Under the pieces are notes generated by a model. It saw nothing but the letters and a program-made list of their open reading frames with translations, was not told the DNA's origin and ran no database searches. From assembly GCA_015064395.1 (NCBI GenBank), contig SVSH01000003.1, positions 46,328-110,327 on the forward strand: 64,000 nt of DNA. The letters run 5' to 3'. Made by a program: the position numbers and the translations under genes. Below, piece by piece: positions 3,596 to 59,380 of this stretch. The stretch's first letter is position 1. Each line of letters starts with the position of its first letter. The DNA comes from Oscillospiraceae bacterium (lineage in GTDB: Bacteria; Bacillota; Clostridia; Oscillospirales; CAG-272).

Positions 3596-3700
3596 GTGAT
3601 GGTACACTGAAAAAATCTCCCTACGCCGGCATTATCCGTATCAGGTTAAGGGTTCAAGACTTGCATCTTATCTCAGCCGATTGCTCAGCACCCCTGTTTT
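3596..3700 (-). promoter_or_regulatory. TPP (THI-box) riboswitch aptamer
   Basis: Minus strand reads GGGGTGCTGAGCAATCGGCTGAGATAAGATGCAAGTCTTGAACCCTTAACCTGATACGGATAATGCCGGCGTAGGGA. It contains the conserved CUGAGA and ACCUGAU-GGAUAAUGCC-GCG elements. Confidence 0.9.
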
Positions 3701-3722
3701 TATGCGGTTTTGATGTGACCCT

Positions 3723-8388: not shown

Positions 8389-8465
8389 GGGCCATTAGCT
8401 CAGTTGGTTAGAGCCACCGGCTCATAACCGGTCGGTCCGGGGTTCGAGCCCCTGATGGCCCACCA
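8389..8465 (+). tRNA. tRNA with anticodon CAU (Met, or Ile2 if lysidine-modified); CCA encoded
   Basis: Manual cloverleaf: acceptor GGGCCAT/ATGGCCC, D stem GCTC/GAGC, anticodon stem ACCGG/CCGGT with loop CTCATAA, T arm CGGGG-TTCGAGC-CCCTG. The body resembles Ile-type tRNAs, so Met versus Ile2 cannot be settled by eye. Confidence 0.9.
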
Positions 8466-16447: not shown

Positions 16448-16532
16448 GGGAGCGTTCCCGAGCGGCCAAAGGGGGCAGACTGTAAATCTGTTGTCACTGA
16501 CTTCGGTGGTCCGAATCCACCCGCTCCCACCA
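16448..16532 (+). tRNA. tRNA-Tyr (GUA), class II with long variable arm; CCA encoded
   Basis: Acceptor GGGAGCG/CGCTCCC, anticodon loop CTGTAAA, long variable arm, T arm GGTGG-TCCGAAT-CCACC. Confidence 0.9.
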
Positions 16533-45362: not shown

Positions 45363-46748
45363 TCAATATATTACGATTGCAATTTTTTCTTTGACGTAGG
45401 CGATCTGTGCCATAACGGACTCGGGAGACGTGCCGCCCTCTGAGATGCGCTTGGCCACACAGGTGGCAAGATCGATCTCCGAGAAGACGTCCTCCTCGAT
45501 CAGATCACTGCATTCGCGGTATTCCTCCAGGGTCAGCGACTCCAGCACCTTGCCCTCGGCGATACACTTGGCAACCAGCTGCCCTGCGATCTTATAGGCC
45601 GTACGGAACGGCATACCCTTCTTGACCAGGTAGTCTGCCAGATCTGTGGCGTTGATAAAGCCCTTTTGCGCCGCTTGCTTCATGTTATCCGCAAGCACGG
45701 TCATGGTAGCCAGCATGGGGGTCAAGACCTGCAGGCACTGCACAACGGTATCCACAGCGTCAAAGACGCTCTCCTTGTCTTCCTGCATATCCTTATTATA
45801 AGCCAGCGGCAGCCCTTTGAGCGTAGTCAAAAGTGCGATCAGGTCGCCATAGACGCGTCCCGTTTTGCCGCGGATCAGCTCGGCCATATCCGAGTTTTTC
45901 TTTTGCGGCATGATGGACGAGCCCGTCGTGTAAGCATCGGACAGCTCGACAAATTTGAATTCCCAGCTCGACCACAGAATGATCTCCTCGGACAAGCGAG
46001 AGAGATGCATCATCAAAATGGAGCAAAAGCTCATAAACTCGGCGCAGAAATCACGGTCGGACACGCCGTCAAGGCTGTTGCGGCTGATGTCGTCAAAGCC
46101 CAGCTTCTTGGCCTCAAACCAGCGATCGGTATCATAAGTCGTACCCGCCAAGGCGCAGCAGCCGATGGGCGAGACGTTCATACGCCCCACGGTATCCTTC
46201 AAGCGATCCACGTCGCGAAGGAGCATCATGGCATAGGCCATCAGATGATGGCCAAAGGTGATGGGCTGTGCCCGCTGCAGGTGGGTATATCCCGGCATAA
46301 TGGTGCTCTTGTGCTGTTCGGCCTGATCGACGATCACCTCCAGCAATTCGCGCAGTTGGGCAAGAATGCCCTCGGAGGCACCGCGGAGATACATACGCAG
46401 GTCGAGCGCGACCTGATCGTTGCGGCTTCTGGCCGTATGCAGCTTCTTGCCCACGTCACCCAGGCGCTCGGTCAGCACCTGCTCGACAAACATATGGATG
46501 TCCTCGCAATTCATGTCGATCGCCAAGGTGCCATTGTCCAAATCATTGAGAATGCCCTCAAGACCGGCGATCAGCGTATCCGCATCCTCTTTGCCAATGA
46601 TATTTTTTGCGGCCAGCATAGCGGCGTGCGCCATCGAGCCCGTAATATCCTCTCGGTACATACGGGAGTCAAAATGAATGGAGGAATTGAAATCATCGGC
46701 CATGCGATCCGTCTCGCCGGTCGTTCTTCCCGCCCACATTTTTGCCAT
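45363..46748 (-). CDS. argH: Argininosuccinate lyase
   Basis: MWAGR... N-terminus and the fumarate-lyase signature ...GSSIMPQKKN... Confidence 0.95.
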   Translation of the reverse strand: MAKMWAGRTTGETDRMADDFNSSIHFDSRMYREDITGSMAHAAMLAAKNIIGKEDADTLIAGLEGILNDLDNGTLAIDMNCEDIHMFVEQVLTERLGDVGKKLHTARSRNDQVALDLRMYLRGASEGILAQLRELLEVIVDQAEQHKSTIMPGYTHLQRAQPITFGHHLMAYAMMLLRDVDRLKDTVGRMNVSPIGCCALAGTTYDTDRWFEAKKLGFDDISRNSLDGVSDRDFCAEFMSFCSILMMHLSRLSEEIILWSSWEFKFVELSDAYTTGSSIMPQKKNSDMAELIRGKTGRVYGDLIALLTTLKGLPLAYNKDMQEDKESVFDAVDTVVQCLQVLTPMLATMTVLADNMKQAAQKGFINATDLADYLVKKGMPFRTAYKIAGQLVAKCIAEGKVLESLTLEEYRECSDLIEEDVFSEIDLATCVAKRISEGGTSPESVMAQIAYVKEKIAIVIY

Positions 46749-46821: not shown

Positions 46822-48054
46822 TTAGTTGTTCTTGCTTGCGTTCTTGGCATCAACGATAGCCTGAACCTTGATGGGCAGACCGTACAGGTTGATAAAGCCT
46901 GCGCTGTCCTTCTGGTCGTAGTCAGACTCGCCAAAGGTAGCGATCTCCTCGCTGTACAGCGAATAGTCGCTCCACACGCCGGCATTGATCATGTTGCCCT
47001 TGTACAGCTTGAGTCTAACCTTACCCGTGACCTTCTCCTGCGTCTTATCGACGAAGGCGGCAAGAGCCTCGCGCAAAGGCGTGAACCACTGGCCGTTGTA
47101 GACCAGCTCGGCATAGGTGATGGCCAGCTTCTGCTTTTCGTGCAGCGTCATCTTGTCAAGGCAGATGCTCTCAAGCACCGAGTGTGCCTTGTATAGGATG
47201 GTTCCGCCGGGGGTCTCATAAACGCCGCGGCACTTCATGCCGACGAGTCTGTTCTCGACGATATCGAGAAGACCGATACCGTTCTTACCGCCCAGCTCGT
47301 TGAGCTTGAGAATGATGTCCTTGGCACTCATCTTCTCGCCGTCAAGGGCTACGGGAACGCCCTGAACGAAGTCCAGTTCAATATAAGTGGGAACGTCGGG
47401 CGCCTGCAGAGGAGACACGCCCATTTCCAGGAAGCCGGGCTTCTCGTACAAGGGCTCGTTGCCGGTATTCTCCAGATCCAGGCCCTCGTGGGACAGGTGC
47501 CACAGATTCTTATCCTTGGAATAGTTGGTCTCACGGTTGATCTTCAGCGGAATGTTGTGTGCCTCGGCATAGTCGATCTCTTCCTCACGAGACTTGATAT
47601 CCCACTCTCTCCAGGGAGCGATGATGGGCATATCGGGGCAGAAATGCTTGAGGGTCAATTCAAAGCGAACCTGGTCATTACCCTTACCGGTACAGCCGTG
47701 GCAGATGGCGTCAGCGCCCTCCTTGATGGCGATCTCAGCCAGACCCTTGGCGATGCAAGGACGGGCGTGAGAGGTGCCCAGCAAATACTCCTCGTAGATG
47801 GCGCCGGCCTTCATACAAGGAATGATGTACTCATTCACGTACTCCTCGGTCAGATCGACAACGTACAGCTTGGATGCGCCCGTCTTGAGTGCCTTTTCCT
47901 CCAGGCCCTCGAGCTCATCCGCCTGACCGACGTTACCCGAAACAGCGATGACTTCACAGTTATTATAATTCTCCTTGAGCCACGGAATGATGATGGACGT
48001 GTCCAAACCTCCCGAGTACGCAAGCACTACTTTTTTGATGTTTTCTTTATTCAT
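46822..48054 (-). CDS. argG: Argininosuccinate synthase
   Basis: ...[13 protein letters not shown]... Start at ATG 48054, 7 nt after GGAGGT. Confidence 0.95.
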
Positions 48055-48277
48055 GATCATACCTCCGGAATAAAAATCCATTTGTTTTGATTTCAACGAC
48101 CACAATTATACACGCTCCCGCACGGTTTGTCAATAGGGTCTTTGAATATTTTTTCCATTTTTCTCATTATTGTATTAATTTTTTTCTTCAATTAGACATA
48201 TTTATTCATGTTCTCTGAATAAAATTCAATTTTAATGAAATTTATGCCGAAATGCGTAAAAAAGCGGCCCAAAACTC

Positions 48278-48306
48278 TTGACATTATAATTAAGATGTGG
48301 TATAAT
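48278..48306 (+). promoter_or_regulatory. Sigma-A-type promoter for the T-box operon
   Basis: TTGACA 48278..48283, 17 nt spacer ending in TGG (extended -10), TATAAT 48301..48306. Confidence 0.75.
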
Positions 48307-48319
48307 AGCGCATATTTCA

Positions 48320-48587
48320 AATACTGTGAAGGAATTACGTTCTGTCATTGCGCGGCGCAGAGAGTTGATGGGTGGTGCGAATCAACACGGCGTGGCAGTT
48401 CGGTCTCGTTCCTGAGTAGAGCTTCCCAACCCTTGGCAGTAAGAAGCTCCGGAGGCCCCGTTATCATGGCTGACGGCTTGTATGAGCCGAACAAAGAGAC
48501 CGTCTCAATGACGGTAATGCGGGTGGTACCGCGGCATATGATGTCGTCCCGGAGGCAGATTGTATATCTGCGTCGGGGCATTTTTTA
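48320..48587 (+). promoter_or_regulatory. T-box leader (tRNA-sensing transcription attenuator), probable Leu (CUC) specifier
   Basis: Elements seen:
- T-box motif AATGCGGGTGGTACCGCGG at 48516..48534
- F-box CCGTTA at 48458..48463
- Stem I AG-bulge AGAGAG at 48359..48364
- distal loop GGGTGGTGCGA at 48370..48380, closed by TTGAT/ATCAA
- base helix GGAA (48331..34) / UUCC (48409..12)
- terminator hairpin plus CATTTTTT at 48547..48586
The specifier CUC at 48405..48407 comes from my manual fold and is an inference. Confidence 0.85.
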
Positions 48588-48609
48588 TATTTGCAAGGAG
48601 GATACACCA

Positions 48610-50016
48610 ATGAAACGAATTCTGATTACTGACACGACACTCAGCACCCAAAGCACGGCGGCCATGAGCTTCCGCGAAAAGCTGGAGATCGCAAAGCTAC
48701 TGGACGGCATGAAGGTAGACTGCATCGACTTTGGTGCGATCAAAAACAGTAAGACCGATCCCCTCCTCATTTCGACCATTGCTCCCCTGCTCTCGCACAG
48801 CACGCTGTGCATTTCGGTAGGGCTGAACGCCGAGGAAGTAACCCTTGCGGCCAGCGCCCTGGGCTCTGTCAAGGGGGGGCGAATTGCCGTTTGCGCTCCC
48901 GTGTCCACCGTAGGCATGGAATATACCTGCCACAAAAAGCCCGCCGCCATGCTGGAGGCCATTGAGAGTCAGATCCGTCTTTGCCGCGATTGTGTGGAAA
49001 CGGTCGAATTTTGCGCCATGGACGCTACCCGCAGCGAGCCTGAATTTTTGACAAGCGCTTTTGCCGCGGCAGTCAACGCAGGTGCTACCCATATTACGCT
49101 GTGCGATCACGCCGGACGCATGCTTCCCGATGAGGCCGCCGACTTTGTGACCAAGGTGCTCTCACAGCTTCCTGCGCGAGAGAAGCTGACCGTATCGGTG
49201 TCCTTCCCCAATACCATCGATCTGTCTGTCGCTTGCGCCGTGGCCTCCCTCAGAGCAGGTGCTGACGGCGTCAAAACAGCCGTTGGCAGCAGCGATTGCT
49301 CCAACGTCTATCCCCTGTCCGAGATTTTGCGCGAGCGGGGTGAGGCATGCGGCCTGTGCTGTGCGCTGAATACCACGGAATTGCGCCGCTCTATCCGCAA
49401 GATCGAAACCATCGCAAGTCCCACAGTCGTGGCCGCCGGTGCCGCAACAACGGGCGTCAGTATAGAGAGCGAGGCCATCTCGCTGGACAAAAACGACGAT
49501 TGCGTATCCGTTGCCCGCGCTGTCCGCAAGCTGGGCTACGATCTCAATCCCGAGGACGAGGCACACGTGTACGAGGCCTTTGTGCGCGTCGCATCGAAAA
49601 AGACGGTCAATGCCCGCGAGCTGGAGGCCATCATTGCCAGCACGGCCCTGCAGGTCCCCCCCACCTATCAGCTGGTCAACTATTTGACCAACAGCGGAAA
49701 CGTCATCAGCTCCTCCGCTCATATCACCCTGAAAAAGAACGGTCAGATGTTGGAGGGCATTACGATTGGCGACGGCCCCATTGATGCCGCGTTTATGGCC
49801 ATCGAGCAGATCGTGGGACATCATTACGACCTGGACGACTTCCAGATCCAGTCGGTCACCCAGGGGCACGAGGCCATGGGTAACGCCCTGGTGCGACTGC
49901 GCAATGGCGGCAAGATCTATTCGGGTAACGGTATCTCGACCGACATCATCGGTGCCAGCATTCGCGCTTACCTGAATGCACTCAATAAAATCGTATATGA
50001 GGAGGCAACCGAATGA
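48610..50016 (+). CDS. LeuA/CimA-like (DRE-TIM metallolyase fold plus LeuA_dimer regulatory domain) protein with substituted catalytic residues; likely a non-catalytic paralog
   Basis: 468 aa from ATG 48610 behind AAGGAGG. Overall collinear with 2-isopropylmalate synthase, but:
- DTTLSTQS replaces DTTLRDGEQ
- CAMDATRSE replaces the EDA motif
- VSVSFPNTIDLSVA (49201..) replaces the HxHxDxG metal site
The C-terminal LeuA_dimer-like domain is retained. Confidence 0.75.
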   Translation: MKRILITDTTLSTQSTAAMSFREKLEIAKLLDGMKVDCIDFGAIKNSKTDPLLISTIAPLLSHSTLCISVGLNAEEVTLAASALGSVKGGRIAVCAPVSTVGMEYTCHKKPAAMLEAIESQIRLCRDCVETVEFCAMDATRSEPEFLTSAFAAAVNAGATHITLCDHAGRMLPDEAADFVTKVLSQLPAREKLTVSVSFPNTIDLSVACAVASLRAGADGVKTAVGSSDCSNVYPLSEILRERGEACGLCCALNTTELRRSIRKIETIASPTVVAAGAATTGVSIESEAISLDKNDDCVSVARAVRKLGYDLNPEDEAHVYEAFVRVASKKTVNARELEAIIASTALQVPPTYQLVNYLTNSGNVISSSAHITLKKNGQMLEGITIGDGPIDAAFMAIEQIVGHHYDLDDFQIQSVTQGHEAMGNALVRLRNGGKIYSGNGISTDIIGASIRAYLNALNKIVYEEATE

Positions 50017-52508
50017 AACTCTCCTTTTCGACCAAGGGCTGGCAGAGCCTTGGCTGGCAGCGCCTGTATGAGCTGGCGCGCGACGTTAAGCTCTGCGGCA
50101 TGGAAATACACGACCCCTTTGATCCTGTGATGAGCGAGCGGGTACTGGACACCCAAAACGTTCCCGTATCCCGCCGTCAGCTCCAGGAAGCGGGGCTGCG
50201 CATCGCTTGCGTGGATCTCCCCGTTGACCTTGCTGACCCAGATGGCGATTTTCTCTCCAAGCTGGACGTGGCCATCACCGCCGCCGTCAATATGCGTACC
50301 GCACACATTCGCATTCACACGCTGGCAAAGACCGAGGACGGCACCGTTCCCGAGGCGATGATGAAGCTTTTGTCGGAATGTCTATTCCGGGCTGAACGCG
50401 CCCAGGTAACGCTGCTACTGGAAACGGCGGGAATGTTCTCGGACACCAACCTGCTCAAAAACACGCTGGACACCTTTGCCAGCGACCATCTGGCCGCTCT
50501 TTGGGATATGCACAACACCTTCTTCGGTGCCAAGGAGGCGCCTCAGAAGACCATCGAAAATCTTGGCGCATACGTCCGTCACGTTCACATCAAGGATGCC
50601 GTTCCCACGGCAAACGGAGGACATCTGTACTGTCTGATCGGCAACGGTGAATTGCCGGCGGAGGATATGATGCGCGCGCTTCGTTCCGTCAACTACGACG
50701 GCTTCGTTTCTCTGGAATGGAGCCCCGACTGGTTGCCCGACATCGACGATCCCGAGATCATTTTCTCTCACTTTGTTCACGTCATGAGCCGCTTTGACCC
50801 CACCGCCCGCAAGCGCAGCACGCTGTACGCCAATGCGACGGGAACGGGCGTTTTCCCTTGGAAAAAGGACACACTGCTCGATCTTACCTTCCCCCAGGTG
50901 CTTGACCGCATCGTGGAGGAGTTTCCCGATCAGTACGCCTTCCGCTACACGACGCTGGACTATACCCGCACCTACGCCGAATTCCGTGACGACGTGGACG
51001 ATTTTGCCCGCGTACTGGTGTCGATGGGCGTTCGCGCAGGACACAAGGTCACCGTTTGGCTGACCAATCTTCCCCAGTGGTACATCGCCTTTTGGGCGAC
51101 CACCAAGATTGGGGCGGTGCTGGTCACCATGAATACCGCTTATAAGATCCACGAGGCGGAATATCTGCTTCGTCAGTCTGACACGCACACCCTCATTATG
51201 ATCGAGAACTACCGCGACTCCGACTACAAGGGCATCATGCAGGAGCTTTGTCCCGAATTGAAAACCACCAAGCCGGGACAGTCGCTTCACGCCAAGCGTC
51301 TTCCCTTCCTTCGCAACATTATCACGGTCGGCTTCCGCATGGAGGGATGCCTGACCTGGGAGGAGTCCCTGACCCGCAAAAATCTCGTTCCCGCCGAGGA
51401 GATCCACCGCATGGCGCTGGCCGTCGACAAAAACGACGTTTGCAATATGCAGTACACCTCGGGCACGACGGGATTTCCCAAGGGCGTTATGCTGACTCAC
51501 TACAACGTCGTCAACAACGGCAAATACATCGGTGACCATATGGATCTGTCTACGGCTGACCGCATGATGATCCAGGTGCCCATGTTCCACTGCTTCGGTA
51601 TGGTGCTGTCCATGACGGCCTCTATGACGCACGGCGCGACCATGTGTCCGCTTCCCTATTTCTCGCCCAAGTCGGCACTGGCCTGCATCAATCAGGAAAA
51701 GATCACGACCTTCAACGGCGTTCCCACCATGTTCATCGCCATGATGCAGCATGCTGATTTTGCCAAGACCGATTTTTCTCACATCCGCACGGGTATCATG
51801 GCAGGCGCTAACTGTCCGGCTGACTTGATGAGGAAGGCGACCGAGGTCATGAACATGAAGCAGATCGTCAGCGTGTACGGACAGACCGAGGCATCGCCGG
51901 GATGCACGATGAGCTCCTTTACCGATCCCCTGGACGTCCGTACCGACACGGTCGGCTCGGCCTTTGCCAACGTCGAATGTAAGATCGTCGATCCCGAGAC
52001 GGGCGAGGAGTGCCCGGTCGGTGTCAACGGTGAGTTTGTCGCCCGCGGCTACAACATCATGAAGGGCTACTACAAGATGCCCGCCGCGACAGCCGCGGCC
52101 ATCGACGCCGACGGCTGGCTGCACACGGGAGATCTTGCCGCCAAGGATGAAAACGGCAACTATCGCATCACGGGACGCCTGAAGGACATGATCATCCGGG
52201 GCGGTGAGAACCTGTATCCCAAGGAGATCGAGGAGTTCTTCTACACCCATCCCAAGGTGCGTGACGTTCAGGTCATCGGCGTTCCCGATGAGCGTTACGG
52301 CGAGGAGGCCATGGCCTGCATCATTCTCAAGGCGGGCATGGAGGCCACCATCGACGAGCTGCGCGACTATGCCAACGCGCACATGGCGCGCCACAAGGTG
52401 CCCCGTTATATTGAATTTGTCAGCGAGTTTCCCATGAACGCCGCCGGCAAGATCTTAAAATACAAAATGCGCGAGTCAGCCATCGAACGGCTCGGACTCA
52501 AAAAATAA
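50013..52508 (+). CDS. Fusion protein: N-terminal xylose-isomerase-like TIM barrel (AP_endonuc_2 family, about 270 aa) plus C-terminal AMP-forming acyl-CoA ligase (about 550 aa)
   Basis: ATGA overlap with the upstream stop. The N-terminal part has ...HIRIHT..., ...LLLET..., ...HVHIKD..., ...VSLEW..., the TIM-barrel metal pattern. The C-terminal part has YTSGTTGFPKGV (around 51450..51485), ...GYGQTE-like VYGQTEAS..., ...TGDLA... and ...GGENLYPKEIE... Confidence 0.8.
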   Translation: MKLSFSTKGWQSLGWQRLYELARDVKLCGMEIHDPFDPVMSERVLDTQNVPVSRRQLQEAGLRIACVDLPVDLADPDGDFLSKLDVAITAAVNMRTAHIRIHTLAKTEDGTVPEAMMKLLSECLFRAERAQVTLLLETAGMFSDTNLLKNTLDTFASDHLAALWDMHNTFFGAKEAPQKTIENLGAYVRHVHIKDAVPTANGGHLYCLIGNGELPAEDMMRALRSVNYDGFVSLEWSPDWLPDIDDPEIIFSHFVHVMSRFDPTARKRSTLYANATGTGVFPWKKDTLLDLTFPQVLDRIVEEFPDQYAFRYTTLDYTRTYAEFRDDVDDFARVLVSMGVRAGHKVTVWLTNLPQWYIAFWATTKIGAVLVTMNTAYKIHEAEYLLRQSDTHTLIMIENYRDSDYKGIMQELCPELKTTKPGQSLHAKRLPFLRNIITVGFRMEGCLTWEESLTRKNLVPAEEIHRMALAVDKNDVCNMQYTSGTTGFPKGVMLTHYNVVNNGKYIGDHMDLSTADRMMIQVPMFHCFGMVLSMTASMTHGATMCPLPYFSPKSALACINQEKITTFNGVPTMFIAMMQHADFAKTDFSHIRTGIMAGANCPADLMRKATEVMNMKQIVSVYGQTEASPGCTMSSFTDPLDVRTDTVGSAFANVECKIVDPETGEECPVGVNGEFVARGYNIMKGYYKMPAATAAAIDADGWLHTGDLAAKDENGNYRITGRLKDMIIRGGENLYPKEIEEFFYTHPKVRDVQVIGVPDERYGEEAMACIILKAGMEATIDELRDYANAHMARHKVPRYIEFVSEFPMNAAGKILKYKMRESAIERLGLKK

Positions 52509-52533
52509 ACACCTGCGACAGGAGGATACTGTT

Positions 52534-53607
52534 ATGAATATCAGAATTGAAAAAACAAGCACGCCCGCACAAAAGCCTGACCAAAAAAAGTTGGGCTTTG
52601 GCAAATACTTTACCGATCATATGTTCCTGATGGACTACTCGCCTGCCGAAGGCTGGCATGACGCTCGCATCGTGCCCTTTGGCAACCTGACCCTTCACCC
52701 CGCCGCTACCGTCTTCCATTACGGTGCGGAGGTGTTCGAGGGCATGAAGGCCTACCGCCGCGCGGACGGTCAGGTCCAGCTGTTCCGTCCCATGGAAAAC
52801 GTCAAGAGACTCAATTCCTCGGCAGAGCGTCTTTGCTTGCCTCAAATCGATGAGCAGGATGCCTTAGAGGCCATCATGAAGTTCGTAGAGGTCGAGCAGG
52901 ACTGGGTTCCCTCCGAGCCCGGCACGTCGCTCTATCTGCGTCCCTTCCTCTTTGGATCGGATGAGCAGCTGGGACTTCACACCATTCAGAACGCGCTGTT
53001 TATCATCATCGCCTCTCCCGTTGGCAGCTACTACGCCGCCGGCATCAACCCCGTCAAGATCATGATCGAGACCGAGGACGTCCGCGCCGTCAAGGGCGGT
53101 ACGGGCTACACCAAGTGCGGCGGCAACTATGCGGCGAGCAACCGTGCGGCCGCTCGCGCCGAGCAAAAGGGTTATTCCCAGGTGCTTTGGCTGGACGGTG
53201 TTCACCGCAAGTATATTGAGGAAGTAGGCGCAATGAACGTTATGTTCCGCATTGGCGACGAGATCGTCACCCCTGAGCTCTCAGGCTCCATTCTGCCCGG
53301 AATCACCCGCAAATCCTGTCTGGACGTTCTTCGCAAGGAAGGGTACAAAGTAACTGAACGCAAGATCAGCGTGGATGAGCTGGTCGAATCGATGAAGAAC
53401 GGCACCCTTAAGGAAGCCTGGGGCTGTGGCACGGCCGCCGTCGTGTCCCCCATCGGTGAGCTGGCTTATGGCGATATGAAGTACACGGTCAACAATTTTG
53501 AGATCGGTGAGATCACGCATCATTTGTACGACACGCTGACCGGCATCCAATGGGGCAATATCCCCGACACCTACGGCTGGACGGTCGAAATTCCCGCCAA
53601 CAAATAA
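52534..53607 (+). CDS. ilvE: Branched-chain amino acid aminotransferase (class IV, long form)
   Basis: 357 aa. ...FGKYFTDHMF..., ...HYGAEVFEGMKAYR..., ...GGTGYTKCGGNYAAS... AGGAGG SD. Confidence 0.9.
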   Translation: MNIRIEKTSTPAQKPDQKKLGFGKYFTDHMFLMDYSPAEGWHDARIVPFGNLTLHPAATVFHYGAEVFEGMKAYRRADGQVQLFRPMENVKRLNSSAERLCLPQIDEQDALEAIMKFVEVEQDWVPSEPGTSLYLRPFLFGSDEQLGLHTIQNALFIIIASPVGSYYAAGINPVKIMIETEDVRAVKGGTGYTKCGGNYAASNRAAARAEQKGYSQVLWLDGVHRKYIEEVGAMNVMFRIGDEIVTPELSGSILPGITRKSCLDVLRKEGYKVTERKISVDELVESMKNGTLKEAWGCGTAAVVSPIGELAYGDMKYTVNNFEIGEITHHLYDTLTGIQWGNIPDTYGWTVEIPANK

Positions 53608-53616
53608 GGAGTTATC

Positions 53617-56600
53617 ATGTCTGAACGTAACCAATTTTCCATGGCGACCATGGACGGCAACGAAGCTGCCGCCTACGTTGCCTATGCCTTTACCGAGGTC
53701 GCAGCCATCTATCCCATCACACCCTCCTCTCCCATGGCGGGCAAAACGGATGCCTGGAGCGCGCACGGCAAAAAAAATCTGTTCGGTCAGAGCGTCAGCC
53801 TGATTGAGATGCAGTCCGAGGCCGGTGCCGTCGCAGCGGTGCACGGTGCGCTTGAGACGGGTGCGCTTTCCACCACCTTTACCTCGTCGCAGGGGCTGAT
53901 GCTGATGATCCCCGTCATGCACCGCATCGCGGGTGAACGACTCCCCGGTGTGCTTCACGTGGCGTCCCGTACCGTCGGCACCCACGCGCTGTCCATTTTC
54001 GGCGATCACAGCGACGTCATGAACTGCCGTCAGACCGGATTTGCCATGCTGTCTACCGGAAGTGTACAGGAGATCATGGACCTTGCTCCCGTGGCCCATC
54101 TGGCCGCGATCAAGGGACGCATTCCCTTCCTTCACTTCTTTGACGGTTTCCGCACCTCGCACGAGATCAACAAGATCGAGACCATTCCGCACAAGGAGAT
54201 GGGCAAGCTGCTCGACCGCGACGCGCTGGATGCCTTCCGCGCCCAGGCGCTCAATCCCGAGCATCCCAGACTTCGTGCCACCGTGCAAAACGGCGACATA
54301 TACTTCCAGGTGCGCGAGGCCAACAACGGCTTTTACGATGCCCTTCCCGGTATCGTCGAGGATTACATGACAAGGATCGGCGAGCTGACGGGGCGCAAGT
54401 ACCATCTGTTCGATTATTACGGTGACGAGGATGCCACAGACGTGGTCGTTGCCATGGGATCGGTCAGCGGCACCGTCCGTGAGGCTGTAGACGCTCTGCG
54501 CGCCAAGGGTCGCAAGGTGGGCTTTTTGCAGGTTCATCTGTTCCGCCCCTTCTCCCAAGATCATTTTCTCAATGCCCTCCCTGCCGGCGTGCGTCGCATC
54601 GCAGTACTGGATCGTTGCAAAGAGATGGGGGCTTTGGGCGAACCCCTTTATCAGGACGTTTGCACCGTGTTCTCGGGACGCGCGGACGTCAAGGTAGTAG
54701 GCGGTCGCTACGGTCTTTCCTCCAAGGACACCGATCCTTCCCAAATCGTTGCCGTGTTTGACAATCTTGCATCTGACGAGCCGAAAAATTCGTTCAGCAT
54801 CGGCATCGTTGACGACGTGACCTTCCGCTCGTTGCCCGCGGGAGTAGCCGTGGCCGAGAAGCCCGGCACCATCTCCTGCAAATTCTGGGGTCTGGGCTCT
54901 GACGGCACGGTGGGTGCCAACAAAAACACGGTCGAGATCATCAACGATCACACAGATAACTACGCCCAGGCTTATTTTGAATACGACGCGAAAAAGTCGT
55001 TTGGCGTGACCAAATCGCACCTGCGCGTCTCTCCTTCGCCCATCACCTCCTCCTACTACGTCAAGCAGGCGGACCTCGTTGCTTGCCATCACCAAAGCTA
55101 CATAGGCAAATACGATATGGTGGGTGAGCTCAAGATGGGCGGCACACTGCTGCTCAACTGCACCTGGAGTGCCCAAGAGCTCTCTGAAAAGCTGCCCGCC
55201 GACGTGCGCCGCGTGCTGGCGCAAAAGAAGGCCAAGCTTTACATCATCAACGCCACGGAAATCGCGTCCCGACTGGGGCTTGGCTCGCACACCAATACGG
55301 TGCTTCAGGCGGCATTCTTCCACATCTCCTCCATTCTGGATGAGGATACGGCCATCGGCTACATGAAGGACGCGGTGCGCAAGACCTACTTTGCCAAGGG
55401 CGACGCCGTCGTGGAACGCAACATCGACGCTATTGATGCAGGTGTTGCGGGCGTTCACAAGGTCGACGTTCCCGCCGATTGGGCGAACGCGGACGATCTT
55501 GCCGTTTCCACGGATGAGGGCAAGCCTGCCGTCGTTCGCAACATTCTCGAGCCCATCAACGCACAAAAGGGTGACGATCTGCCCGTCAGCGCCTTCCGCG
55601 GCTACGAGGACGGCACCATTGACGTCGGTCTTACCGCCTATGAAAAGCGCAACATCGCCGCCAAGGTTCCCGCCTGGAACAGCACGGCCTGCCTGCAGTG
55701 CAACCGTTGCTCACTTGTCTGCCCCCATGCGGCCATCCGTCCGTATTTACTGACGGATGATGAACTGGCGAATGCGCCCGAGGGGCTTGTCGCTGTTCCC
55801 GCCAAGGGAGGCGCCGCTCGCGGCTATCATTACACGCTGCAGATCAGCACGGCCGACTGCACCGGCTGCGGCAGCTGTGTTGCCTCCTGTCCTGCTAAGC
55901 CGCAGGCGATCGAAATGGTGAGCAACACCTTCCCCATCAACTCCCCTGCTTGGAGCTACACGCTGGGACTTGACGACAAGGCCGATCTGTTTGATCGCTA
56001 TACCGTCAAGGGCTCGCAATTCTGCCGCCCCTTGCTTGAGTTCTCTGCCGCCTGTGCCGGCTGTGGAGAGACGCCCTACGCCAAGCTGTTGACGCAGCTG
56101 TTCGGTGACCGCGTCTATTGGGCCAATGCGACGGGCTGCTCGCAGGCCTGGGGCTCACCTATGCCTGGCATCCCCTACACGACCAACAAAAAAGGACACG
56201 GCCCTGCCTGGTCCAACTCGCTGTTTGAAAACAACGCCGAGTTCAGCCTTGGCATGTTCCTATCCGTTCGCCAGCAAAGAGAGGCGCAAAAGATGCGCGT
56301 CGAGCAGCTCGCCGCCATCGCCGATGCCGACGTGCAAGCAAGTGCGCGTGCATGGTTGGAGAGATATGATGATTATGACGCTTCTCCCGCGCTGACCGAC
56401 GCTCTGTGTGCCGCATTGGAGCAGGCTCGCCCCTCTATGGCTGACGAGCAGGCGGTCTTAACCGACGATATTCTGCGCTACCGCGACCAGCTGACCAAGA
56501 AGTGCTTCTGGATGTTCGGCGGTGACGGCTGGGCGTATGACATTGGCTTTGGCGGTCTTGATCACGTGGTGGCCGGCGGCGAGGACGTCAATATGTTTAT

Positions 56601-57126
56601 CGTCGACACCGAGGTGTATTCCAACACGGGCGGTCAGTCCTCCAAGGCGACCCCCATCGGTGCTGTCGCACAGTTTGCCAATTCGGGCAAAAAGACGCTC
56701 AAGAAGGATCTGGGCGCGATGCTCATGACCTACGGTAACGTTTACGTCGCGCAGGTCGCTATGGGCGCCGATCCCAATCAACTCATGAAAGCGCTGAAGG
56801 AAGCCGCCTCTTATCCCGGTCCGTCCGTCATCATCGCCTACACCCCTTGCGTATCGCACGGCATCAAGGGCGGCATGAGCGGTGTTCAGGCTGAGATGAA
56901 GCGCGCTGTCAATGCCGGCTACTGGCATCTTTACCGCTACGATCCCCGTGCTGAAAAGCCCTTCACCCTCGACAGTGGCGAGGCAACCATGTCCTACCGC
57001 GACTTCCTGGACGGTGAGGTGCGCTACAGCGCGCTCGTCCGCACCTTCCCCGACGAGGCCAAGGCCTTGTTCGAGCAAGGCGAGGACGCGGCGAAGCGGA
57101 AGTATGAGAATTATAAGAAGATGTAA
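53617..57126 (+). CDS. nifJ: Pyruvate:ferredoxin (flavodoxin) oxidoreductase, single-polypeptide NifJ/PFOR type
   Basis: 1169 aa. It has the domain I-VII order and two 4Fe-4S ferredoxin motifs (CLQCNRCSLVCPHAA, CTGCGSCVASCP). The TPP-binding region is ...GGDGWAYDIGFGGLDHV... It starts 9 nt after the ilvE stop. Confidence 0.92.
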   Translation: MSERNQFSMATMDGNEAAAYVAYAFTEVAAIYPITPSSPMAGKTDAWSAHGKKNLFGQSVSLIEMQSEAGAVAAVHGALETGALSTTFTSSQGLMLMIPVMHRIAGERLPGVLHVASRTVGTHALSIFGDHSDVMNCRQTGFAMLSTGSVQEIMDLAPVAHLAAIKGRIPFLHFFDGFRTSHEINKIETIPHKEMGKLLDRDALDAFRAQALNPEHPRLRATVQNGDIYFQVREANNGFYDALPGIVEDYMTRIGELTGRKYHLFDYYGDEDATDVVVAMGSVSGTVREAVDALRAKGRKVGFLQVHLFRPFSQDHFLNALPAGVRRIAVLDRCKEMGALGEPLYQDVCTVFSGRADVKVVGGRYGLSSKDTDPSQIVAVFDNLASDEPKNSFSIGIVDDVTFRSLPAGVAVAEKPGTISCKFWGLGSDGTVGANKNTVEIINDHTDNYAQAYFEYDAKKSFGVTKSHLRVSPSPITSSYYVKQADLVACHHQSYIGKYDMVGELKMGGTLLLNCTWSAQELSEKLPADVRRVLAQKKAKLYIINATEIASRLGLGSHTNTVLQAAFFHISSILDEDTAIGYMKDAVRKTYFAKGDAVVERNIDAIDAGVAGVHKVDVPADWANADDLAVSTDEGKPAVVRNILEPINAQKGDDLPVSAFRGYEDGTIDVGLTAYEKRNIAAKVPAWNSTACLQCNRCSLVCPHAAIRPYLLTDDELANAPEGLVAVPAKGGAARGYHYTLQISTADCTGCGSCVASCPAKPQAIEMVSNTFPINSPAWSYTLGLDDKADLFDRYTVKGSQFCRPLLEFSAACAGCGETPYAKLLTQLFGDRVYWANATGCSQAWGSPMPGIPYTTNKKGHGPAWSNSLFENNAEFSLGMFLSVRQQREAQKMRVEQLAAIADADVQASARAWLERYDDYDASPALTDALCAALEQARPSMADEQAVLTDDILRYRDQLTKKCFWMFGGDGWAYDIGFGGLDHVVAGGEDVNMFIVDTEVYSNTGGQSSKATPIGAVAQFANSGKKTLKKDLGAMLMTYGNVYVAQVAMGADPNQLMKALKEAASYPGPSVIIAYTPCVSHGIKGGMSGVQAEMKRAVNAGYWHLYRYDPRAEKPFTLDSGEATMSYRDFLDGEVRYSALVRTFPDEAKALFEQGEDAAKRKYENYKKM

Positions 57127-57130
57127 CGCA

Positions 57131-57164
57131 AAAGGTCCGAAGCGATTGCTTCGGACCTCTTTTA
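57131..57164 (+). terminator. Intrinsic terminator ending the T-box operon
   Basis: AGGTCCGAAGC-GATT-GCTTCGGACCT followed by CTTTT. Confidence 0.8.
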
Positions 57165-57178
57165 TATGGATTTACATC

Positions 57179-58351
57179 TTAAATTTCATCATTTTTTCTC
57201 CTGATTATCAATGCCTTTATTCGCTCACAAAGCGTTTCAAACTCCGGATGGTTATGAAGTGACGCAAATCTTTTGTCTTTGAGAGTTTCCAAATAATCGC
57301 TGGGGTAAATCAAGTAGCATGAACCCATATTTTGAATTTCCATGTCCATACATATCAGACGCTCCTTTGCCCCGTCGGGATCGTTATATCTGTCATCATA
57401 CTGCTCTTTGGCGCGCCATTCTATTCCATCAAGGAAACGACACGATGTGGGCAAAAGCACCTCATCTGTGATCTTCATCGTTTCCTCAAGCAATTCTACC
57501 GCTTTTGTTATTTTCATCATTGCTTCTTTGATTTCACCATTTGCTAACAAGCGAGCAGCGGATTTAAATCCAAGCTCTAGTCTGTCAGCCACCCACATAT
57601 CAGGCCGGTCATCTGTTGCATCACAGCGTATCAGAGCAAGCATATTCTCCATAAACTCATCAGCTGCATTTTGAATTTCGCAACTTGCCTCCCAGTTATG
57701 AAGATACAGTGAGCACAGAAGCGTACGGAATGCATCATATAATTGAAATCTTCTCTCCGGTTCAAATCGTTCAGCGTCCTTTAATTTCCAATACCGGTCA
57801 AAGAGCAAAGCACGTCTGGAGCAATCACTGGCTGTAGTATATTTTTTGAGAAAATCATCCAAATTCTCTTCATCCTCAATATTTGCCATTGTTCTAATGA
57901 CGCGCGAAGACATAGGATGCCGACTAAAATATGCTTCCGCTAACAAACGTACCTCGGGAAGTATCTTAGGGTCGCGGAAGGCGCGGTTGTTTCCTTCAAC
58001 CCACGGCCGCCATGCAGAGTCGCTATTCAGATAATTTCTGCGTATGTCACGAAGGAGCGTTACAATTCTTTCAGCGTCATAATCACGCTTCATACATTCG
58101 CGGCGAAGCTCATCGAACGTTTCCACCGCGCGTTTTTCTTTCTCAATCTGCGGCATACCGAGAAGCTCGTCTACCGTGACAGAAAGAAGTTCGGAAATGG
58201 CAGGTATGAGTTCAAGATCAGGATAGGTCGTGCCGTTTTCCCAACGGCTGACAGATTGATATGATACGCCTAAACGATCGGCAAGAGCCTCTTGTGTCAG
58301 ATCGTTTTTCTTTCTAAAATTGCGTATATTTTCACCAATAGTAAGTTTCAT
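57179..58351 (-). CDS. XRE-family HTH regulator with a large (about 320 aa) helical C-terminal domain of unknown function
   Basis: MKLTIGENIRNFRKKNDLTQEALADRLGVSYQSVSRWENG is a Cro/C1 HTH. Start taken at the internal ATG (MKLT...) behind GGGAGG; the coordinate comes from codon arithmetic on the ORF-track entry. The gene is visibly AT-richer than its flanks. Confidence 0.75.
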   Translation of the reverse strand: MKLTIGENIRNFRKKNDLTQEALADRLGVSYQSVSRWENGTTYPDLELIPAISELLSVTVDELLGMPQIEKEKRAVETFDELRRECMKRDYDAERIVTLLRDIRRNYLNSDSAWRPWVEGNNRAFRDPKILPEVRLLAEAYFSRHPMSSRVIRTMANIEDEENLDDFLKKYTTASDCSRRALLFDRYWKLKDAERFEPERRFQLYDAFRTLLCSLYLHNWEASCEIQNAADEFMENMLALIRCDATDDRPDMWVADRLELGFKSAARLLANGEIKEAMMKITKAVELLEETMKITDEVLLPTSCRFLDGIEWRAKEQYDDRYNDPDGAKERLICMDMEIQNMGSCYLIYPSDYLETLKDKRFASLHNHPEFETLCERIKALIIRRKNDEI

Positions 58352-58534
58352 ATTTTCCTCCCATGTATTTCTTCCTTGCAAAGAGTTATTTCTGTCGACA
58401 TCCATATTATAATTCGAAAATATCAAAAAATCAATAACTCATTTTGAGAGAATTATTCTCACTTTCCGAGAGATCGTTGGGATAAAACAGCCCCCAACAA
58501 GTAAATTCTCATTGGAGGCCATCTTTGCTTAATT

Positions 58535-59380
58535 TCACCCTTCCGTCTTGGACAGCCAATCGGCGACGACGAAGTCCTGCAGCTTACGCAGGGTGTCGGG
58601 GTCTTTACCCCCGACGCTCTCACCGTCCAGTTCCCTTGCGGACAGGCACAAGGAACCTGCGCTGGAGACGATGATCTCGTCCGCATCGCGCAGCTCCCGC
58701 ATGGTGAAGATGCGCTCCTCGACGGGAATGCCAAGCGTTTTACTTGCCTCGATCAGGTGCGCTCTGCCAACACCGGGCAGGATATACTCGTCAGCGGGAG
58801 GGGTGATAAACACACCGTTCTTCAGAATAGACACGTTGGAGTGGGAGCACTCGGTGACGCGGTCGCCGCGGTGCATGACCGTTTCATCCACGCCGGCCCG
58901 GGCCGCCATCTCGGCAGTCAGCACGCTGGGCAGGAGGTTGAGGGTCTTCATGTTACAATACAGGTATCTTCTGTCCTCGGCAGACACCAAGCGGATGGGC
59001 GTATATACCGGCTTGATGGGCATATGGCGCAACATGATCATGAGATTGGATTTCTGCTCTCCCTCGGGAAAGCTGTGGTCGCGCAAAGCACTTCCGCGCG
59101 TGGCCTGCCAATAGACAAACTGCTCGCCGTCATCCACACGGCGAACCAGCTCGCGTAACAGCGCGCTCAATTCTTCCGCGGGCATGGGCTCGGCGATCTC
59201 CAGGCGCGCCAGGTTGGTATAAAACCTTGCAATATGCTCATCGAGCGCATAGATGATATGATTTCTCGTATAAGCGGCGTCGTAAATGCCGTCGCCAAAG
59301 TAAAGGCCGCGGTCGGTCATGGGGACCTTCATGTCCTCAATCAGACCGATCTCGCCGTTATAGTATCCTAAATTACGCAT
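58535..59380 (-). CDS. Class IV aminotransferase, D-amino-acid transaminase-like
   Basis: 281 aa. ...RGLYFGDGIYDA..., ...CNMKTLNLLPSVL... (catalytic Lys context), ...ECSHSNV..., ...ILPGVGR... Confidence 0.7.
   Translation of the reverse strand: MRNLGYYNGEIGLIEDMKVPMTDRGLYFGDGIYDAAYTRNHIIYALDEHIARFYTNLARLEIAEPMPAEELSALLRELVRRVDDGEQFVYWQATRGSALRDHSFPEGEQKSNLMIMLRHMPIKPVYTPIRLVSAEDRRYLYCNMKTLNLLPSVLTAEMAARAGVDETVMHRGDRVTECSHSNVSILKNGVFITPPADEYILPGVGRAHLIEASKTLGIPVEERIFTMRELRDADEIIVSSAGSLCLSARELDGESVGGKDPDTLRKLQDFVVADWLSKTEG

Follow-up and report, generated by a model that had tools for sequence, protein, structure and literature searches.

A leucine T-box operon pairing a dead LeuA paralog with an acyl-CoA ligase fusion, a candidate module for making leucine from isovalerate

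We analyzed an operon in a 64,000-nucleotide stretch of DNA (here called the window) from an Oscillospiraceae bacterium (assembly GCA_015064395.1, contig SVSH01000003.1). Behind a T-box leader with a leucine specifier, it codes for a dead paralog of LeuA (gene 1), a fusion of a TIM barrel with an AMP-forming acyl-CoA ligase (gene 2), a branched-chain aminotransferase of the IlvE family (gene 3) and a single-chain pyruvate:ferredoxin oxidoreductase (PFOR)-type enzyme (gene 4). Judging from sequence comparisons, it is reasonably probable that this operon encodes a salvage route that produces leucine from external isovalerate, that it forms the leucine branch of a three-branch system, and that gene 1 supplies a leucine-binding partner. 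According to the sequence and the established T-box mechanism, uncharged tRNA-Leu would read the CUC specifier and stabilize the antiterminator. The ligase domain of gene 2 would then turn isovalerate, ATP and CoA into isovaleryl-CoA, the PFOR-type enzyme would carboxylate this with reduced ferredoxin to 2-oxoisocaproate, and IlvE, of clear family but presumed substrate, would transaminate the latter to leucine. An initial annotation had proposed this sequence of ligase, PFOR and IlvE, and the comparative genomics of related loci gives it strong support: the specifier is a leucine codon in 60 of 60 aligned leaders, the pair made of gene 1 and the fusion is accompanied by a VorB-type 2-oxoacid:ferredoxin oxidoreductase (OFOR) and IlvE in some loci and by a PFOR of this type in others, and sister ligases resembling MbcS in the same loci carry isoleucine and valine T-boxes.

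Carboxylation of isovalerate to leucine is documented in rumen bacteria (Allison 1962, 1966, cited in PMC7356843). As outlined in that source, the pathway seen by labeling involves the chemistry proposed here, with isovalerate activated, reductively carboxylated and transaminated, and the same habitats and taxa (ruminococci, rumen Bacteroidia and gut Clostridia). The labeling work, as far as that account goes, comes without gene assignments, while here a leucine-regulated gene set can be proposed, including two unexpected components that look noncatalytic. The direction of synthesis is preferred because the operon would be induced by starvation, because the ligase is AMP-forming and because rumen bacteria carboxylate isovalerate to leucine.

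The leucine leader and the transcription unit

The leader matches the Rfam model RF00230 over the full length of the model (94.7 bits against a gathering score of 93, E = 1.7e-19, covariance model), and the corresponding alignment places CUC in the specifier position, the codon at which the initial annotation had arrived by folding Stem I manually. When Stem I alone was folded by minimum free energy (MFE), the canonical shape did not emerge and shuffled sequences folded just as well; the placement of the specifier rests on the covariance model and on covariation, not on MFE folding. The antiterminator bulge is UGGU (TGGTACCGCG at 48524), compatible with a tRNA of discriminator A, and in the folded antiterminator it belongs to a 7-nt bulge, UGGUACC. 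None of 200 shuffles was as stable as the leader terminator (-20.8 kcal/mol, z = -3.98). Terminator and antiterminator are mutually exclusive, with the strand GUCGUCCCG common to both.

This leucine signal is found in related loci as well. In 60 of 84 loci gene 1 is preceded, at a distance of 70 to 220 nt, by a T-box core motif, and the column homologous to the CUC of the window holds CTC in 52 of these aligned leaders and CTG in the other 8. Both are leucine codons, so the identity of the amino acid is kept through synonymous change. The 4-bp helix directly 3' of the specifier covaries (GGAA/UUCC, GAAA/UUUC, GAUA/UAUC, GGAG/CUCC, and GGCA/UGCC), Rfam alignments agree on the placement of CUG and CUC in several loci, and the orthologous leaders score 96 to 119 bits. 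Where no T-box is adjacent, gene 1 stands behind IlvE or OFOR genes, and at L037 and L074 a CUC T-box heads the longer unit. Two metagenome loci without a T-box code for a 29-residue leader peptide ahead of the dead-LeuA gene (L118, 622-711; L122, 4526-4615), with nine and seven leucines, respectively, and a core NSLNLLTLGxLLG, followed by a terminator hairpin. It looks like a classical leucine attenuator, a candidate for an independent leucine-responsive device.

Other loci lack the T-box altogether. Those with Bacteroidota-type TAnnTTTG promoters have none, as expected for the phylum; in these Bacteroidia (L129, L134, L140, L151, L159; L164, L165) the pair is often accompanied by PFOR. A different conserved leader, GCCGCGATGGCCCGGCATGGTGCCGGGCAGGGATGGCGAACGTCGTAAGGAGACGCCC, is located approximately 60 nt upstream of the dead-LeuA start in L086 (4880-4948), L087, L088, and L090, and no T-box motif was found in it, between promoter and gene.

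T-boxes switch on downstream genes when the cognate tRNA is uncharged. As predicted from the sequence, the four genes form one transcription unit that is turned on by uncharged tRNA-Leu. Several claims of the initial annotation bear on this point and all of them stood: one consensus promoter, matching at 12 of 12 positions; a T-box leader ahead of the four genes; tight packing, with genes 1 and 2 overlapping by 4 nt (50013/50016) and with gaps of 25 nt behind gene 2 (52508/52534) and 9 nt behind gene 3 (53607/53617), exact to the nucleotide; and no terminator until the end of the operon, since no other strong one was found on the plus strand between the leader and the terminator behind gene 4. 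Two weak terminator-like hits on that strand, at 50686 and 52385, have 5-bp stems and are as many as shuffled sequences yield, and the promoter-like hits elsewhere inside the operon are weak and also at the number expected from shuffles. Gene 1 starts at the ATG at 48610, preceded by AAGGAGG; an open reading frame (ORF) start at 48235 was rejected, being upstream of the promoter. The ribosome-binding sites of genes 2, 3, and 4 are GAGGAGG, AGGAGG, and AAGGAG.

The operon had also been described as devoid of leuBCD and, indeed, neither leuB nor leuC nor leuD was found in it or among its annotated neighbors (36.7-60.7 kb). The ilv-leu operon of Bacillus subtilis carries a Leu-specific T-box too and shares the leucine codon, the UGGN bulge, the terminator/antiterminator switch and the control of genes for leucine supply. 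The T-box in the window differs in that it controls no leuABCD but a dead LeuA-like gene, a ligase, IlvE and a PFOR.

Table 1. Position of the operon features in the window
Feature	Position	Strand	Basis
Sigma-70 type promoter, TTGACA / 17 nt / TG-extended TATAAT	48278..48306	+	12/12 positions match
T-box leader RNA, Stem I to antiterminator	48317..48554	+	Rfam RF00230
Specifier codon CUC (Leu), followed by G at 48408	48405..48407	+	Covariance-model alignment
Conserved T-box sequence UGGUACCGCG, with UGGU as the antiterminator bulge pairing with the tRNA 3' end	48524..48533	+	
Leader intrinsic terminator hairpin, U run to ~48590	48546..48579	+	Folding versus shuffles
Gene 1, dead LeuA paralog, 468 aa	48610..50016	+	
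Gene 2, TIM barrel::acyl-CoA ligase fusion, 831 aa	50013..52508	+	
Gene 3, branched-chain amino-acid aminotransferase, IlvE type II	52534..53607	+	
Gene 4, single-chain NifJ-type 2-oxoacid:ferredoxin oxidoreductase, 1169 aa	53617..57126	+	
Operon-end intrinsic terminator, 11-bp stem plus U run	57133..57158	+	-20.6 kcal/mol, z = -5.7

Related loci and the three ligases

In 33 genome loci the pair adjoins a module composed of one or two fusions of helix-turn-helix (HTH), cupin and ligase domains, a P-loop protein, a four-subunit OFOR and IlvE. The alpha subunit of this OFOR is of the VorB type (542.7 bits against a cutoff of 399), and the IlvE is type II. The module ligases, with their N-terminal HTH and cupin domains, have MbcS as the best family, at 445 bits and below the equivalog cutoff of 850. 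The P-loop protein (222 residues, GHYGSGKT; L001, 5196-5864, and 32 other loci) always precedes the VOR delta and alpha genes, has no match in Pfam or NCBIfam and may be a maturation or accessory factor of the OFOR.

These MbcS-like ligases have T-boxes of their own, with the specifier AUC (Ile) in 20 cases (21 with one ambiguous), GUA or GUC (Val) in 14 and CUC in one; examples are two at L035 (9412-9646 and 6828-7055, both on the minus strand) and others at L014, L053, L083, L001, L051, and L082. A strict regular expression for the T-box missed the isoleucine and valine leaders, which were recovered with Rfam and a relaxed motif-plus-helix rule; several score below the Rfam gathering threshold and are assigned by that rule only. 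Covariance-model alignments agree with the AUC and GUC examples. In a neighbor-joining tree the ligases fall into two clades that coincide with the specifier, with no exception among the assigned isoleucine and valine cases. Such a partition by T-box offers an internal control, seldom available, when the specificity of a ligase is to be assigned just from its sequence context.

MbcS of Staphylococcus aureus activates exogenous branched short-chain acids to their CoA esters (PMC10026030, PMC11167679), and the purified enzyme acts on 2-methylbutyrate and isobutyrate, isovalerate being a very poor substrate (PMC10026030). By inference, the isoleucine and valine branches would use the MbcS-like enzymes for 2-methylbutyrate and isobutyrate, respectively. 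MbcS itself feeds fatty-acid synthesis and, considering that it barely activates isovalerate, a leucine branch would have reason to use another type of ligase; gene 2 belongs to a different family (PRK12583/FadD-like) and has a TIM barrel at its N terminus. By elimination, and by the symmetry of the three branches, the substrate of the leucine-branch ligase should be isovalerate, as read only from the partition of isoleucine, valine and leucine T-boxes. Each amino-acid-specific T-box would thus drive its own acyl-CoA ligase, and the ferredoxin-dependent OFOR and IlvE would be shared between the branches. We regard this context of three ligases and three sensors as the strongest support, at the level of sequence, for the route through ligase, OFOR and IlvE.

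Relatives of gene 1 are present in at least 590 species representatives, according to a genome scan with the family alignment. The carriers are nearly all uncultured gut or rumen Clostridia (Acutalibacteraceae, Oscillospiraceae, Lachnospiraceae, Ruminococcus, Faecousia, and Christensenellaceae), together with a few Coriobacteriia and Synergistaceae; a later search and look-ups of gene context added Bacteroidia (Bacteroidaceae, Salinivirgaceae, and others). The species of the window is itself absent from the fetched loci, in which the best matches are 52% identical for the dead LeuA (genome scan) and 70% for the PFOR (metagenome scan). A survey of gene order in related genomes, as the initial annotation had suggested, found the order of the pair kept: the fusion is the next gene in 69 of the 78 genome loci with a called gene 1, the rest being contig ends or artifacts of ORF calling. 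Gene 1 and the fusion are spaced by -20 to +24 nt in all but a few loci, with -4 as the commonest value, and complete copies of the fusion are approximately 830 to 846 residues long. Mean identity of the orthologs to the window is 75% for the ligase domain and 70% for the LeuA regulatory domain, falling to 41% for the TIM barrel and 39% for the LeuA barrel.

A module-linked PFOR of the same type as gene 4 was found in five genome loci (the window, L023, L038, L073, and L075), with 66 to 73% mutual identity. Another 80 loci were fetched from metagenomes with PFOR-specific peptides alone, and their PFOR relatives are 59 to 70% identical to gene 4. Gene 1 and the fusion lie directly upstream of the PFOR in 33 of the 40 that are informative, that is, with at least 5.2 kb upstream of it, and IlvE stands between the pair and the PFOR in 5 of the 80. 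A metagenome-assembled genome of Bacteroidaceae has the same order of pair and PFOR. The genomic setting of this PFOR is unlike that of a housekeeping gene. It holds the position taken by VOR elsewhere, which suggests a functional replacement.

Directly after the fusion, 33 loci (e.g., L001, 13912-14718) code for an Amidohydro_2 protein of approximately 269 residues with an HxH motif; NCBIfam gave no match for it and the PDB none better than the uncharacterized BB4693 (3irs), and it is absent from the window. In the source annotations, members of the gene 1 family appear under names that include "hypothetical protein" and "2-isopropylmalate synthase" (a JGI name). No description of the gene set, of the pair or of the isoleucine/valine/leucine T-box partition was found in the full-text literature searched, the coverage of which is incomplete, and novelty is unproven. 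The biochemical route and the T-box logic are known already; what seems new is the assignment of genes to the route and the proposed pseudoenzyme partner.

The four proteins

Gene 1 consists of a degenerate HMGL-like barrel (residues 8-225; PF00682, 100 bits, 1.9e-28) and a LeuA regulatory domain (residues 333-461; PF08502, allosteric/dimerization, 106.1 bits, E = 1.7e-30, covering profile positions 2-130 of 131). This regulatory domain is near-invariant across the family and matches LeuA models, not those of citramalate synthase; a PDB sequence search with the C-terminal domain gave no match even at E = 1. LeuA of Neisseria meningitidis (3rmj) has the same succession of barrel and allosteric domain, with 31% identity over its aligned residues 11-289. 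Compared with it, DTTLRDGEQ has become DTTLSTQS, HCHND has become SFPNT and GERAGN is deleted; the Asp/His/His metal ligands and the substrate arginine are lost. RDGEQ, HxH, and GERAGN are absent in 18 of 18 aligned members (gene 1 and 17 relatives), and the substituting residues are not conserved. Three barrel positions, D138, R141, and E143, are invariant across the family and shared with LeuA. All LeuA equivalog cutoffs are missed by a wide margin, with 268.5 bits against 532 for NF002086, the best of them, and 222 against 598.7 for TIGR00973. An active LeuA was rejected as a reading of gene 1, all the catalytic motifs being missing.

In gene 2, a xylose isomerase-like TIM barrel (residue 1 to approximately 265; PF01261, AP_endonuc_2, 69.7 bits against a cutoff of 31.1) precedes the ligase (residues 298-813; PF00501, 312 bits, and PF13193, 66.8 bits), which is PRK12583-like at 677 bits, below the cutoff of 832. 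The core ligase motifs (TSGTTGxPKG, YGxTE, TGD, GRxKD, and the C-terminal Lys) are intact and near-invariant in 69 orthologs. The barrel was modeled by AF2 with a pLDDT of 91, and Foldseek related the model to generic sugar isomerases and epimerases (TM 0.65-0.73, 13-20% identity), from which no function can be derived. The TIM domain was found only within this fusion: used alone as a query, it retrieved fragments of the same fusion family and no stand-alone relative of known function. A metal tetrad, E137, D165, H192, and E235, presumably a Glu-Asp-His-Glu site to judge from a spacing like that in ketose 3-epimerases, is complete in the window and in 27 of 69 orthologs and lost in the other 42, with E-N-H-V and K-D-H-E as common variants. 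E31, C66, W164, E175, and D195 are invariant in a 36-sequence alignment of the barrel.

Gene 3 is above the NCBIfam equivalog cutoffs for IlvE (NF009897, 480.7 bits against 307; TIGR01123, 404.7 against 250). Gene 4 exceeds that of TIGR02176 (1696.8 bits against 911), has the full domain set (POR_N, PFOR_II, POR, EKR, two [4Fe-4S], and TPP_C) and aligns to the Moorella PFOR (6cin) with 1447 bits. These assignments, like those of a dead LeuA-like protein and a TIM barrel::ligase fusion, had been made in the initial annotation and agree with the profile searches. At the three substrate-site residues of gene 4 that could be placed, no difference from pyruvate PFORs was found, nor any sign of altered specificity in the sequence.

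2-Oxoacid:ferredoxin oxidoreductases are reversible. PorA of Clostridium sporogenes and archaeal or bacterial VOR likewise belong to the PFOR superfamily, depend on ferredoxin and thiamine diphosphate, and convert branched-chain 2-oxoacids and acyl-CoAs into each other; VorB-type enzymes hold the equivalent position in most related loci. Both PorA and VOR have been characterized in the oxidative direction, while gene 4 is a single polypeptide of the NifJ type whose pyruvate-site residues are canonical. PorA is needed for the formation of branched-chain acids in C. sporogenes (bioRxiv 401489); hence, branched-chain 2-oxoacids are plausible substrates for a PFOR.

The role of gene 1 and competing explanations

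Neither gene 1 nor the TIM barrel of gene 2 is likely to have enzymatic activity. Considering the contrast in conservation between domains, and that the metal tetrad is intact in only 27 of the 69 orthologs, the data suggest that gene 1 works through its LeuA regulatory domain and that both barrels are noncatalytic scaffolds. Gene 1 would bind leucine as a partner of the ligase, its translation coupled to that of gene 2, and bring the first committed step under end-product control; the two drifting barrels might dock the proteins to each other.

HisZ, a dead paralog of histidyl-tRNA synthetase, is the histidine-sensing regulatory subunit of the ATP phosphoribosyltransferase HisG. A HisZ-like logic, in which a dead paralog that recognizes the amino acid of the pathway is kept as partner of the first committed enzyme, would fit the strict pairing of the genes, their overlap by 4 nt and the contrast within gene 1 between a conserved regulatory domain and a drifting barrel. 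The analogy is one of operation and involves no homology; here, the dead paralog descends from the enzyme that canonically opens the other leucine pathway, and its partnership with the ligase is a prediction. More tentatively, a widespread isoleucine/valine/leucine regulon might return branched-chain fermentation acids to amino acids, and the LeuA-derived pseudoenzyme of its leucine branch might sense leucine on behalf of an isovalerate-CoA ligase.

Major fiber-degrading bacteria of the rumen use branched-chain fermentation acids as growth factors, and the human colon is rich in these acids. The conversion of these acids to amino acids has been known from isotope labeling for some sixty years, without a gene-level description in the literature searched, a gap that the gene assignment would fill. 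If true, it would provide marker genes to predict dependence on isovalerate, isobutyrate, and 2-methylbutyrate in gut and rumen, and targets for rumen nutrition and models of microbiome cross-feeding. It would also be a new case of a pathway controlled by the dead paralog of an enzyme that has been functionally replaced, and a tractable example of a pseudoenzyme as an allosteric sensor.

Several observations weigh against the isovalerate route. The best PDB relatives of the ligase are fatty-acyl, feruloyl, and malonyl-CoA synthetases, and none with known short-chain specificity is close. In many loci VOR and IlvE are upstream of the leucine T-box rather than behind it, and the 33 metagenome loci with the pair next to the PFOR are not independent events, since related strains may be included. 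Gene 4 keeps Thr31, Arg114, and Ile123 of the pyruvate site (D. africanus numbering) and could be an ordinary pyruvate enzyme. The barrel of the window retains an intact metal site, and the Amidohydro_2 gene behind the fusion in 33 loci opens the way to extra chemistry on a different precursor. These last two points are also what one would expect if the same leucine-starvation operon had a ligase for another leucine precursor, with gene 1, the TIM barrel and the Amidohydro_2 protein as real preprocessing enzymes. The five invariant barrel residues favor such an arrangement too, as does the leucine branch having a different ligase family and three barrel proteins or domains missing from the isoleucine and valine branches. 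We nevertheless consider it unlikely: 42 of 69 orthologs have lost the metal tetrad in an unchanged gene context, the Amidohydro_2 gene is missing from many loci besides the window, and gene 1 retains no LeuA catalytic motif. Both barrels evolve approximately twice as fast as the ligase and the regulatory domain, the structural neighbors of the TIM barrel are generic and distant, and no alternative precursor fits the succession of ligase, OFOR and IlvE as simply as isovalerate.

The pyruvate-site residues and the high score to the Moorella enzyme would equally suit a PFOR that merely supplies reduced ferredoxin (and acetyl-CoA), with isovaleryl-CoA carboxylated by a VOR whose genes lie elsewhere in the genome. 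Reductive carboxylation depends on electrons of low potential, and most species combine the module with a VorB-type OFOR. This division of labor has a rather small chance of being correct, since PFOR replaces VOR behind the pair in many loci with no VOR in the fetched stretch, as is typical of nonorthologous replacement, and since C. sporogenes needs an enzyme of the PFOR superfamily to form branched-chain acids (bioRxiv 401489). It is quite improbable that gene 1 is not a regulator but an enzyme of new, metal-independent chemistry, for instance a variant condensation feeding an isopropylmalate-like route. The barrel fold is retained and D138, R141, and E143 are invariant and common to LeuA, but metal ligands, substrate arginine and GERAGN are gone with no conserved replacement, the operon has no leuBCD-like partners, and the barrel is 39% conserved against 70% for the regulatory domain. 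As for the opposite direction, with leucine fermented to isovalerate through IlvE and an oxidative PFOR, the reversibility of OFORs would permit it, and in C. sporogenes enzymes of the PorA type produce branched short-chain acids (bioRxiv 401489). However, T-boxes and leucine-rich leader peptides induce on leucine shortage, and an AMP-forming ligase drives the acid toward acyl-CoA and would conserve no energy in reverse. Catabolic routes use a phosphotransacylase and kinase, ADP-forming synthetases or CoA transferases. We rejected the catabolic direction as extremely improbable on account of the starvation induction and the AMP-forming ligase.

Upstream of the operon is the divergent pair argG (46822..48105) and argH (45363..46748), read from a second perfect promoter (12/12, 48105-48133 on the minus strand) that diverges from that of the operon. 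No tRNA-Leu gene was found within the 64-kb window, in which tRNA-Met (CAU, 8389-8465) and tRNA-Tyr (GUA, 16448-16532) are encoded on the plus strand. The minus strand downstream of the operon codes for an XRE-family HTH protein (57179-58426) and for a second class IV aminotransferase of 281 residues, of the D-amino-acid/branched-chain type (58535-59380). Two riboswitches were also detected, a thiamine pyrophosphate riboswitch in the window (3601-3705, minus strand; 70.2 bits against a gathering score of 54.3) and, unrelated to the module, a tetrahydrofolate riboswitch at L027 (7597-7697, plus strand; 74.6 bits).

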